A DNA stretch of 64,000 nt from Sphingobacteriales bacterium UTBCD1 (GTDB taxonomy: Bacteria; Bacteroidota; Bacteroidia; Chitinophagales; Chitinophagaceae), in contig MWTC01000031.1 in the NCBI GenBank assembly GCA_002066995.1, positions 11,649-75,648 on the forward strand, written 5' to 3'. The stretch's first letter is position 1; every line of letters begins with the position of its first letter. The notes beneath the pieces were generated by a model. The model did not search any database. It saw nothing but the letters and a program-made list of their open reading frames with translations, and was not told where the DNA came from. The position numbers and the translations under genes were made by a program. This document shows positions 23,756 to 51,117 of this stretch, piece by piece.

Positions 23756-24646
23756 ATGAAAAAGATACTATATATATTGTCGGTGGCCGCTTTGGTAATC
23801 GTCATTCATTCATGTAAGAAAAAAGAGAGCTTAAATGTTTTCTCTGATTACAAAAATTTAGGCCTTGGAACTTACATGACGCTTGACAAAAACATTAATT
23901 TGAATCTGGATTTCTCTCACCTGGCAACATCTACTGTTGGAATACAGGTGAGCCAGTATCCCAATGGCCAGGCTATAGATCATATCATTCTATTTGCTAC
24001 CACAAATGCCTCTTATGATACTACTCAATGGCATTTTGTGAAATCAATTCCTTACACAGGCCCGGGTACCCAGTTAACTGTGAGCGGTGCAGAATTGGCC
24101 ACATCACTTGGAGTGAGCATCGGGACGTTGCAGCCCGGTACTGCATATACTTTTTATACCCGCATCATTACAAAACAAGGATATAGCTTTGATGTAAATA
24201 CTACCGGTGATAACGGGGGGGGTGGTTTGGTGACCGGAGCATACTACAACTCTGTATTTTCATTCACAGCTTATATTGTTTGTCCCTTTACCGGGAATAT
24301 GGTGGGTACTTATAAAGTAATAAGGGATGATTGGGCTGACTGGTCACCTGGTGATATGGTACAGGTAACTGACGGGCCCGGTGCCAACCAGATCAATTTA
24401 AGCCAGGTATATCCAGGAGGTGGTATTATCATTAATCCTTTAATTGTAAATATTGATCCTGCCAGCGGTACTGCAAAAATTCCAAAGACCGTATTTGGGA
24501 AATATTCCGCTAATGGCCACCAATATACTGCAGAAGGAGCAGGAGATAGTGACGTAGCAGGTTTTGTATTTTCCTGTACAGGCTATATCACTTTAAACAT
24601 TAATATTGATGGAGATCCATACAAATTGATCTTGCAAAAACAGTGA
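23756..24646 (+). CDS. PUL-associated lipoprotein of unknown function
   Basis: Lipobox (VIHSC), 296 aa, 14 nt after susD and followed by a terminator. I recognise no catalytic motif. Confidence 0.65.
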   Translation: MKKILYILSVAALVIVIHSCKKKESLNVFSDYKNLGLGTYMTLDKNINLNLDFSHLATSTVGIQVSQYPNGQAIDHIILFATTNASYDTTQWHFVKSIPYTGPGTQLTVSGAELATSLGVSIGTLQPGTAYTFYTRIITKQGYSFDVNTTGDNGGGGLVTGAYYNSVFSFTAYIVCPFTGNMVGTYKVIRDDWADWSPGDMVQVTDGPGANQINLSQVYPGGGIIINPLIVNIDPASGTAKIPKTVFGKYSANGHQYTAEGAGDSDVAGFVFSCTGYITLNINIDGDPYKLILQKQ

Positions 24647-46598: not shown

Positions 46599-46735
46599 AA
46601 ACAGTCTTCTTATAAGCAGATAAATACGTTGGGGAAAAAATCGCTTGTTTTCACTTATTTTTTATTCTTTCAAGCCGGGTCATTTGTTAATCTCAAAAAT
46701 TTGGTTACTTTTAAATTAAGTTAAACCAAATCAAC

Positions 46736-47765
46736 ATGAGAAAAATTACCCCCCCCGACATTTTTTTCCAAATCACTTGCTTGCCTCTTAGTAATCTTTT
46801 CTGTTTTGCTCAGTTTTAATTCCTGTAAAAAGGAAGAAAAGAAATCTGATGTCGCAATGCAGGAAGAATCTGTCAATAAAGTTCATCCTAATGTTCCTCA
46901 GTGTAGTAACGGCTATCACTGGGACTATAACTTAATGCAGTGTGTACCCAATTGCCCATCCGGTTATATTTATGATCCTGAAACAAATGATTGTATTCCC
47001 AATGAACCAAGCGGTGGATCCAGAATTTGTGGTGCAGAATTTAACCAATTTAATTTAGGTGGTTATACATTAAGCCAGGTGATCGAATATATAGGCGTGA
47101 AACACAACGAATATCAGGATTTCATTTATAATGGCATTATGGCTGATACATCAGTCCTTACTAACGGAACATTACAGGCTTTCCTAAAACAAAAAACGAC
47201 AACTTTTTTTAAAGGGCTGGGCATAACTGAAGCTAATAATCCATTACCCGGAAACTTTGATATATTAGATACAAGCTTTGTAATCACCGGTTATTCTTCA
47301 AGTGCAACAACTATTCTTAATCAATTAAAAGGGATTGCAGATGGATATACTGATGAAAATTATTTCCAGATAATTAACACGCTGGAAAACCTGAAGCAGC
47401 AGGCCCTCAATTTACCTGATTTTACAGAAGCTTTAGCAGTAGCAGGTTGCATAAGTGTTGCTAAACATTCTTATCAGTATTGGACTTACAATCTTACAAA
47501 ATGGTATGCTGTATTACATTTAAGTGGTAGCGGTTATGCAAATAAACAAGCTCCATGTGGTATTAATGTAAAAAAGATTGGAGGGAAAGATGTTATTGGA
47601 GCAATTAATGGGGCTACATTAGGATCTTTTGGAGGAGTTGTAGGTGCATTTGCCGGAGGAATTCTTGGCAGCGCTACTGCTTCGGCAGGACAGGTTTTGT
47701 GGGAAGCCGCAAAATGTATACCCTATGTAGGGAATGTAGTAAGATGGTTATCCGATTGGTTTTAA
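46736..47765 (+). CDS. Putative surface lipoprotein toxin with a C-terminal glycine-zipper module (5' end frameshifted in a C8/T7 tract)
   Basis: The ATG at 46736 opens MRKITPP..., which stops at 46817-46819. The main frame (ORF-track 46806-47765) read backwards encodes ...PPTFFSKSLACLLVIFSVLLSFNSC, a complete lipoprotein signal, if one nt is removed from C8 (46749-46756) or T7 (46761-46767). Mature N-terminus is CKKEEKK. C-terminus is GAINGATLGSFGGVVGAFAGGILGSATASAGQVLWEAAKCIPYVGNVVRWLSDWF. Confidence 0.7.
46749..46767 (+). repeat. C8 and T7 homopolymer tracts at the frameshift point of the toxin gene
   Basis: Counted directly: C at 46749-46756 and T at 46761-46767. Confidence 0.9.
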
Positions 47766-47795: not shown

Positions 47796-48029
47796 ATGAA
47801 CTTTTTTTCGCACATACGGAATAAGATAAGAGAATCCAAAAAATTTACTATTATATTTATTGTTATATACAGCGTTATATTTTTTTTACTCTTAAGACTA
47901 TTTATTCCGGTATATGCTCACTCTTCAGATTTAATATTATTAATAATCACCAATCTTGTTGTAGTCTTTTATATTCGAAAAAAATTTTTAATTAAAAAAA
48001 AGGAGAAGGATCATCAACAATTGAAATAA
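47796..48029 (+). CDS. Small two-helix membrane protein, putative immunity protein (type A, copy 1)
   Basis: 77 aa: basic N-terminus MNFFSHIRNKIRESKK, two hydrophobic helices and a Lys-rich tail ending DHQQLK. Starts 30 nt after the toxin stop. Confidence 0.6.
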   Translation: MNFFSHIRNKIRESKKFTIIFIVIYSVIFFLLLRLFIPVYAHSSDLILLIITNLVVVFYIRKKFLIKKKEKDHQQLK

Positions 48030-48260
48030 AAAGACCCGGCCAGTCGGTTGATAAACGTTTAACAAAAAGGTTATGGAGGTGCTGATATTAAAGGCGCATT
48101 TGTCGGTGGTAGAATAGGTTTAGCTGCAGGGGCTCCGGGTGTATTTGCGGGAGCAATTTTGAGTAGTGCAGTTTTTTCTTCAGGGCGGGTATTATGGGAA
48201 GCCGCTAAATGCATACCTTATGTAGGAGGAATAATTAGATGGTTAGATGATTGGTTTTAG
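48030..48260 (+). other. Orphan toxin C-terminal cassette 1 (frame intact from 48063, no start codon)
   Basis: 48063-48260 translates to QKGYGGADIKGAFVGGRIGLAAGAPGVFAGAILSSAVFSSGRVLWEAAKCIPYVGGIIRWLDDWF*, collinear with the last 64 aa of the full-length gene. A TAA at 48060-48062 replaces a Lys codon (INV*QK vs INVKK). Confidence 0.75.
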
Positions 48261-48291
48261 TTTATTTCATGATTTTATTAATTTATTTGAT

Positions 48292-48522
48292 ATGAACTTT
48301 TTTTCGCACTTACGGAAGAAGATAAGGGAATCCAAAAAATTTACTATTATATTTGGTATCATATACAGCGTTATATTTTTTTTACTCTTTAGACTATTTT
48401 TTCCGGAATATGCTCACTTTTCGGATTTAATATTATTAATAATTACCGGGTTTGTCGGTGACTTTTATATCCGAAAGAAATTTTTAAATAAAAAAAAGAA
48501 TGATCATCAACAATTGAAATAA
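48292..48522 (+). CDS. Putative immunity protein (type A, copy 2)
   Basis: 76-aa paralogue of 47796-48029. I use the internal ATG at 48292, because the ORF-track start at 48247 lies inside the cassette tail. Confidence 0.6.
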   Translation: MNFFSHLRKKIRESKKFTIIFGIIYSVIFFLLFRLFFPEYAHFSDLILLIITGFVGDFYIRKKFLNKKKNDHQQLK

Positions 48523-48752
48523 AAAGACCCGGCCAGTCGGTTGATAAACGTTTAACAAAAAGGTTATGGAGGATCTGATATTAAAGGCGCAATTGCCGGT
48601 GGTAGAATAGGTTTAGCTGCAGGGGCTCCGGGTGTATTTGCGGGAACAATTTTGGTTAGTGCAGTTTTTTTTCAGGGCGGGTATTATGGAAAGCTGCAAA
48701 ATGTATTCCTTATGCAGGATCTGTGATCAGATGGTTAAGTGATTGGTTTTAA
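48523..48752 (+). other. Orphan toxin C-terminal cassette 2 (frameshifted)
   Basis: Near-identical to cassette 1 at the 5' end. There is a 1-nt deletion at the T8 run (48665-48672), which puts the VLWKAAKCIPYAGSVIRWLSDWF* tail out of frame. Confidence 0.7.
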
Positions 48753-48778
48753 TACAGAGAAATTATAATAAAATTCTT

Positions 48779-48994
48779 ATGAAATTTTTATCCAGGTTAA
48801 GAAATAAAATTTGGGAATCTGCTCCACTATTCTACATCTTTGGTTTGATAAACAGTGTTATTGTTTTTTTCCTTCTTAGGCAATTTCTTCCTGAATGGAC
48901 AGACTTTTCCGTTTTAATCATTGTCATTATTTCCGGTATAATTGGTGACTATTATATAAGAAAATGGTACATTAAAAAAAATAAAAAGGAGTAA
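48779..48994 (+). CDS. Putative immunity protein (type B, copy 1)
   Basis: 71 aa starting MKFLSRLRNKIWESAPLFY, with the same two-helix architecture. Internal ATG at 48779 used. Confidence 0.55.
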   Translation: MKFLSRLRNKIWESAPLFYIFGLINSVIVFFLLRQFLPEWTDFSVLIIVIISGIIGDYYIRKWYIKKNKKE

Positions 48995-49029
48995 TCATTG
49001 GAGCTGCACTTATGACATGGCTTATTCAT

Positions 49030-49109
49030 CAGGAGCAGTATTATGGGAAGCCGCAAAATTTATACCATACGTAGGGAATGTAGTAAGATGGTTATCTGAT
49101 TGGTTTTAA
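49030..49109 (+). other. Orphan cassette 3: tail-only remnant
   Basis: Encodes ...SSGAVLWEAAKFIPYVGNVVRWLSDWF*. It and its 3' flank match 47690-47795, offset 1345 bp. Confidence 0.7.
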
Positions 49110-49140
49110 TCTATGTCGAGATATTGAAAAATGACCTTAA

Positions 49141-49371
49141 ATGAATTTTTTTTCATACATAAATAATAGGATAATAAAATCCAAGAGATTTGCGATAATT
49201 TATAGTATTATTGTAAGTGTTATTACATTTTTTCTCGGCGCACTATTTATCCCTGATCTTAGGGATATTCCCGACCTGATAATAAGTATTCTTACCGGGC
49301 TTGTCGCCCACTTATATATTAGAAAATTTTTAACTGAAAAAAAGGAGAAGGATCATCAACAATTGAAATAA
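49141..49371 (+). CDS. Putative immunity protein (type A', divergent)
   Basis: 76 aa starting MNFFSYINNRIIKSKRF, two helices, tail EKDHQQLK. Confidence 0.55.
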   Translation: MNFFSYINNRIIKSKRFAIIYSIIVSVITFFLGALFIPDLRDIPDLIISILTGLVAHLYIRKFLTEKKEKDHQQLK

Positions 49372-49601
49372 AAAGACCCGGCCAGTCGGTTGATAAACGT
49401 TTAACAAAAAGGTTATGAAGGAGCTGATATTAAAGGCGCAATTGCCGGTGGTAGAATAGGTTTAGCTGCAGGGGCTACAGGTGTATTTGCGGGAACAATT
49501 TTGGTTAGTGCAGTTTTTTTTCAGGGCGGGTATTATGGAAAGCTGCAAAATGTATTCCTTATGCAGGGAATGTAGTAAGATGGTTATCCGATTGGTTTTA
49601 A
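49372..49601 (+). other. Orphan toxin C-terminal cassette 4 (frameshifted)
   Basis: Same 5' junction (AAAGACCCGGCCAGTCGGTTGATAAACGTTTAACAAAAAGGTTATG) and the same 1-nt deletion as cassette 2. Tail is ...AGNVVRWLSDWF*. Confidence 0.7.
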
Positions 49602-49631
49602 TTTAGAGTCAATTATTTAAAAATACCTTAA

Positions 49632-49865
49632 ATGAAGTTTTTTTCCGCTTTACGGAATAAGATAAGAAAATCCAAAAGGTTTACTATTTTATTTAGTGTT
49701 ATATACAGCGTTATATTTTTTTTACTCTTAAGACTATTTATTCCGGAATACGCTCACTCATCAGATTTAATATTATTAATAATCACCGGGATAGTCGTTG
49801 ACTTATATATTCGAAAAAAAATTTTAATTAAAAAAAAGAAGAATGATCATCAACAATTGAAATAA
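49632..49865 (+). CDS. Putative immunity protein (type A, copy 3)
   Basis: 77 aa starting MKFFSALRNKIRKSKRF, a paralogue of copies 1 and 2. Confidence 0.6.
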   Translation: MKFFSALRNKIRKSKRFTILFSVIYSVIFFLLLRLFIPEYAHSSDLILLIITGIVVDLYIRKKILIKKKKNDHQQLK

Positions 49866-50095
49866 AAAGACCCGGCCGGTCGGTTGATAAACGTTTAACA
49901 AAAAGGTTATGGAGGAGCTGATATTAAAGGCGCAATTGCCGGTGGTAGAATAGGTTTAGCTGCAGGGGCTACAGGTGTATTTGCGGGAACAATTTTGGTT
50001 AGTGCAGTTTTTATTCAGGGAGGGCATTATGGGAAGCTGCAAAATGTATTCCTTACGTAGGGTCTGTGATCAGATGGTTAAGTGATTGGTTTTAA
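49866..50095 (+). other. Orphan toxin C-terminal cassette 5 (frameshifted)
   Basis: Same junction sequence. It is 1 nt shorter than cassette 1 in GCAGTTTTTATTCAGGGAGGGCATTATGGGAA. Tail is ...VGSVIRWLSDWF*. Confidence 0.7.
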
Positions 50096-50121
50096 TACAG
50101 AGAAATTACAATAAAATTCTT

Positions 50122-50352
50122 ATGAAATTTTTATCCAGGTTAAGAAATAAAATTTGGGAATCTGCTCCACTATTCTACATCGTGGGTTTGATAAACACTG
50201 TTATTGGTTTTTTTCTCCTTACTCTATTCATTCCTGAAATGAGAAATTCTGGCTATCTCATACTATTTATAATCTGTGGATTAATCACTGACTATCTCTT
50301 AAGAAAGATGTACTATAAAAAAAAGAAGAATGATCATCAAGAATTGAAATAA
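50122..50352 (+). CDS. Putative immunity protein (type B, copy 2)
   Basis: 76 aa starting MKFLSRLRNKIWESAPLFY, with the first ~20 aa identical to the 48779 copy. Internal ATG at 50122 used. Confidence 0.55.
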   Translation: MKFLSRLRNKIWESAPLFYIVGLINTVIGFFLLTLFIPEMRNSGYLILFIICGLITDYLLRKMYYKKKKNDHQELK

Positions 50353-50751: not shown

Positions 50752-51117
50752 TCATTCTTCGCCTTTCAAAGTATTATAAAAAGCAAGGATCATTTTATAA
50801 ATCTGCAAGGCCTCATCAATCAAAGATTCATAAATCTCTTTTGTCAGATAGTTAACTCTAAAAGCAAGCTCAATCTGAGTTTGTGCTTCATTTATCGAAC
50901 CCATTGAGATTTCAAGAAATCTTTTAAACTGTTTATTGGTACCTCTCCCTGCTCCTTCAGAAATATTACTTGGTACAGAGACCGCACAACTCCGAAGTTG
51001 AGCAGTAAGTCCATATTTTTCTTCCTTTGGAAAATTTGCGCTTACTTCATAAATCTTAACCACATAATCCATGGAACGCTGCCAGATCTTTAACTCCCTG
51101 TAATTATGCATGCCCAT
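50752..51117 (-). CDS. Four-helix-bundle protein (23S rRNA intervening-sequence protein family)
   Basis: 121 aa with the family pattern Y.EL.IWQ....V..IY.....FP.EE.YGLT.Q.RS.AVSVPSNI.EG.GR....F..FL.I..GS..E..TQ. Confidence 0.85.
   Translation of the reverse strand: MGMHNYRELKIWQRSMDYVVKIYEVSANFPKEEKYGLTAQLRSCAVSVPSNISEGAGRGTNKQFKRFLEISMGSINEAQTQIELAFRVNYLTKEIYESLIDEALQIYKMILAFYNTLKGEE

Follow-up and report, generated by a model that had tools for sequence, protein, structure and literature searches.

The locus examined here raises a simple question: is a gene for a toxin-like lipoprotein, whose start codon and body are at present read in different frames, switched off, lost, or merely mis-sequenced? 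Within the window (the whole stretch of 64,000 nucleotides that was analysed), the features listed in Table 1 surround a main frame with a body of 319 codons, one base out of frame with the ATG at 46736. From that ATG the DNA runs through ACC CCC CCC GAC, which contains the C8 tract, and the frame translates as MRKITPPDIFFQITCLPLSNLFCFAQF before it is terminated. The long frame translates from 46740 as EKLPPPTFFSKSLACLLVIFSVLLSFNSCKKEE... and has its first possible start at a TTG (46806) in the middle of the hydrophobic h-region. When one C is deleted in silico the translation becomes MRKITPPTFFSKSLACLLVIFSVLLSFNSCKKEE..., i.e. MRKITPPTFFSKSLACLLVIFSVLLSFNSC-KKEE..., and when one T is deleted it becomes MRKITPPDIFSKSL... 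With C7 or C10 the lipoprotein precursor MRKITPP(P)TFFSKSLACLLVIFSVLLSFNSC|KKEE is restored, at 342 or 343 residues, respectively, as against a peptide of 27 residues with C8, so that a change of a single unit toggles between the full-length and the truncated product. The preliminary description had located the short ATG frame, its TAA, and the C8 and T7 runs at the positions in Table 1, had regarded TTG 46806 as the first in-frame start inside the h-region, and had claimed that removal of a single nucleotide from either run restores a lipoprotein precursor; the positions agree with the sequence, and the remaining points were borne out by inspection of the open reading frames and their translations.

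Table 1. Features of the toxin-like lipoprotein locus and the control tract (positions in the window)
Feature	Position	Strand	Remarks
Control tract G8	24215-24222		Inside an intact 296-aa SusC/SusD-locus (PUL) lipoprotein gene; encodes ...DNGGGGLV...
Conserved upstream region, probable promoter and leader	46644..46735	+	Can be recognised 5' of L001 and L002 as well
ATG start codon of the lipoprotein precursor	46736..46738	+	Same start, by homology, as in the intact P0002, P0003 and P0013 (MRI/MRK...)
Dead-end ORF, 27 codons	46736..46819	+	Translated in the present OFF state; TAA at 46817-46819
Main open frame, toxin-like lipoprotein	46740..47765	+	Opens directly 3' of the TGA overlapping ATGA
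Poly-C tract C8, variable element	46749..46756	+	Lengths 7, 10 and 13 in frame; 8 places the body at +1
T7 run	46761..46767	+	Constant length; restored frame reads Phe-Phe-(Ser); restored PPTFF matches PPPTFF of P0013
Lipobox FNSC and KKEE	46815..46838	+	Cys codon 46824-46826; from translation
Immunity-like ORF, 77 aa, predicted membrane protein	47796..48029	+	Directly 3' of the toxin gene
Array of orphan C-terminal toxin fragments (five), with an immunity-like paralogue after each	48051..50352	+	Identified in tblastn searches that used the toxin and the immunity ORF as queries

The C8 is a mononucleotide run in codons 5-7 of the signal peptide and has the length (at least about 7 bases) and position (5' coding region or promoter) typical of the homopolymeric tracts of phase-variable loci. 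By itself it lies within chance, since runs of eight or more C or G number 2 in the 64 kb, where 1.89 are expected from dinucleotide shuffles. What is beyond chance is the combination of a run in codons 5-7 of the signal peptide, an exact frameshift and a homologous length polymorphism in relatives. In the long ORFs of the window, CCC makes up only 21% of the proline codons and CCCCCC encodes 1 of 32 Pro-Pro pairs; given this low use of CCC-CCC, a homopolymer is not the default way of coding Pro-Pro here.

The restored N-terminus, judged by inspection, consists of a basic n-region (MRK), a hydrophobic h-region (LACLLVIFSVLL) and SFNS-C, of which Ser-Cys is invariant in the alignment of homologues. 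In Bacteroidota, the lipoprotein export signal directly after the cysteine is K-(D/E)2 or Q-A-(D/E)2 (PMC5080379), and C-K-K-E-E matches the first of these forms. Because of the n- and h-regions, the lipobox cysteine and the KKEE export signal, the restored protein is predicted to be a surface-exposed lipoprotein. Its body comprises a small Cys-rich module, a helical region and a Gly-rich GxxxG C-terminus ending ...LWEAAKCIPYVGNVVRWLSDWF, and it belongs to an uncharacterised family with 712 cluster representatives at E <= 1e-3. The members of this family (P0016-P0161) are mostly 250-330 residues long; they carry a signal peptide or lipobox and combine a helical region with a Gly zipper at the C-terminus, where the last residues are ...WF or ...WW. 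Searches of Pfam and NCBIfam returned no significant family for the restored protein, the immunity ORF or ten family members, and a Foldseek search of the PDB with the AlphaFold model of P0002 (mean pLDDT 59) gave no match with E < 1. The confidence of the model is low, all PDB matches had E > 1, and weak ones to alpha-pore-forming toxins were disregarded.

A comparison of tract lengths in related strains, which the preliminary description had suggested, revealed C8, C9, C10, C11 and C12 among near-identical relatives, with an intact precursor at C10. The allele of the window reads C8 (+1, OFF) in all assemblies. A 95%-identical allele (P0008) reads C11 (+1, OFF) in L006 (the same contig in at least 20 samples), L008, L009 and L010, and C12 (+2, OFF) in L005. 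A sister gene, to which we return below, has C8 in L030 (OFF), C9 in L001, L011, L024, L028 and L029 (+2, OFF), and C10 in L004, where it is in frame (ON) and encodes the complete precursor P0013 (MRKLSPPPTFF...SFNSC), which begins MRKLSPPPTFFVNPIVYLFLIFSVLLSFNSC. The homologue P0002 (72% identity; L002 and L003) is stably in frame with no tract, encoding the same prolines as GCCCCTCCACCACAA by mixed codons, and the more distant homologues P0003 and P0004 are likewise in frame and without a tract. L011 was the sole locus found by the DNA-pattern scan of genome_contigs; two such scans of metagenome_contigs, a collection without relevant contigs, gave 0 matches and 3 unrelated chance matches.

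The differences in length occur on otherwise invariant backgrounds. L001 (C9, SRR12170510) and L004 (C10, SRR12170511), from runs with adjacent accessions, align over 3,185 nt without a mismatch and with a single gap, and L005 (C12) and L006 (C11) do so over 1,482 nt. Length polymorphism with invariant flanks is thus found in the relatives; in the window's own clone all copies are C8. The in-frame state is represented by C10 only, in the sister gene on one short-read contig (L004), and the apparent occurrence of ON (L004) and OFF (L001) in one background was seen once, for that gene and that single contig. C10 and C12 each come from a single sample and short-read contig, and could reflect the choice of an assembler in a mixed or error-prone homopolymer. 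In a collection of approximately 15 billion proteins, neither the window's gene nor the 95% allele had an ON version.

Variation in length is confined to the C run in the contigs that were compared, where every A/T run of at least 7 is constant and a T9 run 65 nt upstream stays unchanged when the C run changes. The T7 run, which had been put forward as a second part of the switch, is T7 or T6G at all loci; this sole variant is a substitution (Ser to Ala) that leaves the length constant, and we rejected the run as a switch element. The G8 tract in the PUL lipoprotein gene served as a control of equal length. Looked up through a neighbouring SusD-like protein (23 contigs read, 20 of them merged because their neighbouring proteins were mostly identical), it reads G8 in all three other loci whose DNA was read.

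Some contigs end at or near the tract: L020 and L021 begin with a 31-mer ending at the 8th C, and L023 begins directly after the tract. We considered such ends as a sign of heterogeneity within samples and rejected this, since a second toxin copy is preceded by a duplicate of the roughly 90-nt promoter region, which would break assemblies in any case. In L005 and L006 these approximately 90 nt are nearly identical 5' of the second full-length copy, and the sequence further upstream differs. A different kind of contig is L007, which at 292-420 has a 5' end of the window type (C8, T7 and three linked SNPs) joined to the body of the 95% allele; this mosaic arose either by recombination just 3' of the tract or when short reads from a mixed sample were assembled into a chimeric contig.

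The explanation that we favour, with a probability of roughly 55-60%, is that the C run is a slipped-strand contingency tract that is currently OFF (+1). Replication slippage would alter its length by single bases in signal-peptide codons 5-7 (Pro-Pro), and only lengths of 7, 10 and 13 would join the ATG and n-region to the h-region, the lipobox cysteine and KKEE. At these lengths the protein would be exported, lipidated and displayed on the surface, while at other lengths translation would end within at most 27 codons and the body would be left without an export signal. OFF cells would stay protected, as the downstream immunity-like genes are separate ORFs that would be translated independently of the tract. 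We infer that switching is frequent and reversible within populations and that the ON/OFF alternation has an ecological value. One tentative scenario, for which we would claim somewhat less than even odds, is that a clonal environmental member of the Bacteroidota hedges its bets on surface display of a toxin: all cells would keep the immunity genes, and producers would coexist with protected non-producers.

The alternative with most in its favour, though we consider it less likely, is plain loss at a mutational hot spot. The tract would slip without any adaptive, reversible switching, the toxin gene would be dispensable or costly in bioreactor communities, and the copy in the window would be a young pseudogene. 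Such loss would account for the window allele and the 95% allele being out of frame in all assemblies (C8, C11 and C12), and for in-frame being only one of the distinct tract states seen. It also agrees with the retention of C8 in L022, whose 20,960 nt of alignment with the window contain 29 SNPs and no gap (0.14% divergence). Further nonsense and frameshift lesions in alleles of the sister gene point in the same direction: a TGG>TAG nonsense change, by which the last 59 residues are lost, is present in five sister-gene loci (four with C9, as well as L023, whose contig begins after the tract), and L030 has a second frameshift besides its C8. Given these secondary lesions in OFF alleles, the OFF state can be long-lived and lead to decay.

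Against loss stands the state of the gene body. Between the window and the C11 allele there are 26.5 synonymous and 18.5 non-synonymous changes over 313 codons (dS approximately 0.14, dN/dS 0.18), and neither body contains a stop or a frameshift, even though both alleles are OFF; dN/dS between the window and P0002 is 0.21. Judging from this pattern of substitution and from the intact bodies of OFF alleles, the gene body is under purifying selection and is kept functional. Moreover, the tract occupies the same codons in two diverged genes, a difference of one base separates the in-frame allele from an OFF allele, and the promoter region, the immunity gene and the orphan array have been kept intact. 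The preliminary description had left the choice between an ON/OFF switch and recent inactivation, and the comparison divides accordingly: the poly-C run is indeed variable in length, from C8 to C12 in near-identical relatives, whereas the window's own allele is C8 and OFF throughout. Switching at the consensus level is absent from the window's lineage, L022 included, and this uniformity, by the preliminary description's own yardstick, leans towards stable inactivation in that lineage.

A second alternative, which seems to us improbable, is non-standard decoding, by a +1 slip of the ribosome on CCC-C near the start or by slippage of RNA polymerase; the tract would then tune the level of expression, and there would be no OFF state. 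CCC-C near a start codon is a known +1-prone site, long homopolymers can cause transcriptional slippage, and C8 and C11, the commonest states of the window's gene family, are both +1. However, the occurrence of +2 (C9, C12) and in-frame (C10) states as well means that no one frame is conserved, and distant homologues, which lack a tract, are in frame; the run is followed by an ordinary GAC codon, and a run of eight is short for efficient transcriptional slippage. A search for a frameshift-stimulating RNA structure in 46700-46840 gave none that was significant (fold z = -0.83). Thus, of the two hallmarks of programmed frameshifting, a conserved out-of-frame arrangement and a stimulatory element such as RNA structure or a slow or stop codon in the A site, neither was found.

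As for the sequence itself, the frameshift is genuine and no homopolymer sequencing error. The DNA comes from Sphingobacteriales bacterium UTBCD1, a Chitinophagaceae MAG; UTBCD1 is mentioned by name in a paper on anammox granules (PMC5460018). We retrieved 11 further assemblies of the window allele (ENA, JGI, NCBI GCA_020850385.1 and Logan), and C8/T7 was read in 11 of 11; most of them are 100% identical to the window. C8 is therefore found in at least 12 independently retrieved assemblies of the same organism (the window and L012-L022), as well as in L007, which has the body of the 95% allele and a C8/T7 5' end as in the window. The product of the main frame is identical to P0001 and P0007 and to a shorter call, P0006. 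In public collections the truncated protein, the output of four different gene callers, appears under three different mis-called starts, including the TTG and, in P0006 and P0008, an ATG 17 codons further on. The idea that the true genome has C7 or C10 and an intact gene, and that C8 is an error of sequencing or assembly, has on its side the error-proneness of homopolymers on some platforms and the short contigs that begin or end near the tract (L009, L010, L020, L021 and L023), yet it is hardly credible when C8 recurs across different groups and assemblers, all four gene callers give the truncated protein, the neighbouring G8 of equal length is read consistently and in frame, and the duplicated promoter region of the two toxin copies accounts equally well for the contig breaks. 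The earlier judgement that a systematic homopolymer artefact is less likely, and its observation that the gene with the G-run is intact, hold with C8 in assemblies from four sources and with G8 inside an intact ORF of 296 codons. An inverton was rejected as well: the inverted-repeat search gave only short, imperfect repeats, none of them flanking in the manner of an invertible promoter, and the locus has no recombinase gene.

What, then, would be switched? The designation of the protein as a toxin, made in the preliminary description, draws on the gene context; comparison with known families and structures gave no match. The immunity-like ORF has a homologue (35% identity, E = 5e-9) in a small ORF 3' of the distant homologue P0003, in a different genomic context. 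The array that follows it contains direct repeat families with a period of about 490 nt, and some of its orphan C-terminal fragments, up to 50352, carry internal stops. P0005 and P0013 have the signal peptide and the Cys-rich region (about 90 residues) in common and then diverge completely, i.e. a shared N-terminus is combined with alternative C-termini. A shared N-terminus, a paired downstream gene and orphan cassettes, as found in polymorphic toxins, are thus all present; a recognisable toxin domain is lacking. This context argues for a polymorphic toxin-immunity system with a putative immunity function for the small ORFs, and we infer from it that the protein is a toxin.

The sister gene lies in related Chitinophagaceae (L001, L004 and L023) at the syntenic site, between the gene for a DUF4197 protein and atpC/atpD. 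It has the same signal peptide, poly-C tract and Cys-rich module, followed by an unrelated, Cys-rich C-terminus, and 3' of it an ABC-transporter ATPase and a 250-aa ORF take the place of the immunity array. In the window, a 121-aa gene (50752-51117, minus strand) is situated between atpC and atpD, an unusual interruption of the ATP synthase pair; its counterpart in L022 has a 119-aa product with precomputed matches to PF05635 (23S_rRNA_IVP) and, weakly, to bAvd. In L005 and L006 (1-310), a second full-length toxin allele (95% identical, C11 or C12) follows directly after the end of an immunity cassette, and this allele (P0008) has its own copy of the approximately 90-nt upstream region. Since it is full-length and has an upstream region of its own, some strains would carry at least two complete, separately switchable toxin genes per array.

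Slipped-strand phase variation is textbook knowledge in host-adapted pathogens. To our knowledge, records of it are rare for bioreactor and free-living Bacteroidota, in which invertible promoters prevail, and for interbacterial toxins. If the bet-hedging scenario is true, an interbacterial weapon from an entirely uncharacterised protein family would be under phase variation of the simple-sequence-repeat (SSR) type, and this in a phylum whose known switches otherwise work by DNA inversion. A real switch would also provide a simple genetic handle on the makers of surface toxins in anammox-granule communities, as the length of the tract can be read directly from metagenomes. The uncharacterised family of toxin-like lipoproteins, together with its immunity partner, is flagged here for experimental study. 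Automated annotation mis-called the gene with its three truncated starts, and homopolymer-aware annotation would recover it.

With regard to its cargo, the locus may be compared to polymorphic toxin systems with orphan toxin-immunity cassettes (PMC3482391) and to the surface-associated glycine-zipper bacteriocin CdzC/D of Caulobacter (PMC5380434). Common features are a conserved N-terminal trafficking part with alternative C-termini, a small membrane immunity-like gene downstream, an array of C-terminal fragments with immunity paralogues, a Gly-rich GxxxG C-terminus and a predicted surface location. In contrast to those systems, the protein resembles no described toxin family in sequence or structure, and it would be exported as a lipoprotein rather than by a T1SS, T5SS, T6SS or T7SS.

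With regard to its control, the usual mechanism of phase variation in Bacteroides is the invertible promoter, or inverton (PMC3090145). Those loci share with ours the phylum and the ON/OFF control of surface structures, and differ in that DNA inversion does there what slippage of a tract would do here. In Neisseria, the opa genes, which encode outer-membrane adhesins, have CTCTT pentanucleotide repeats in the region coding for the signal peptide. As in opa, the repeat lies inside the signal-peptide coding sequence and a change of frame uncouples the start from the mature protein while leaving the body intact, although here the tract is mononucleotide and the signal peptide is that of a lipoprotein. 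Parallels in mechanism are the contingency loci with homopolymeric G/C tracts of Neisseria meningitidis, Haemophilus influenzae, Campylobacter jejuni and Bordetella pertussis (PMC5084427, PMC1891110, PMC11868660). As in these, a poly-G/C tract of at least 8 lies in the 5' coding region of a gene for a surface protein, changes of one base toggle the frame, and the length differs between otherwise identical isolates (here, relatives). Unlike these loci of host-adapted pathogens, ours belongs to an uncultured environmental member of the Bacteroidota from anammox and wastewater reactors, its product is a putative toxin against other bacteria, and the allele in the window seems to be fixed OFF. By this comparison the mechanism would match one already known, and what would be new is its host, an environmental bacterium of the Bacteroidota, and its cargo, a putative polymorphic lipoprotein toxin.
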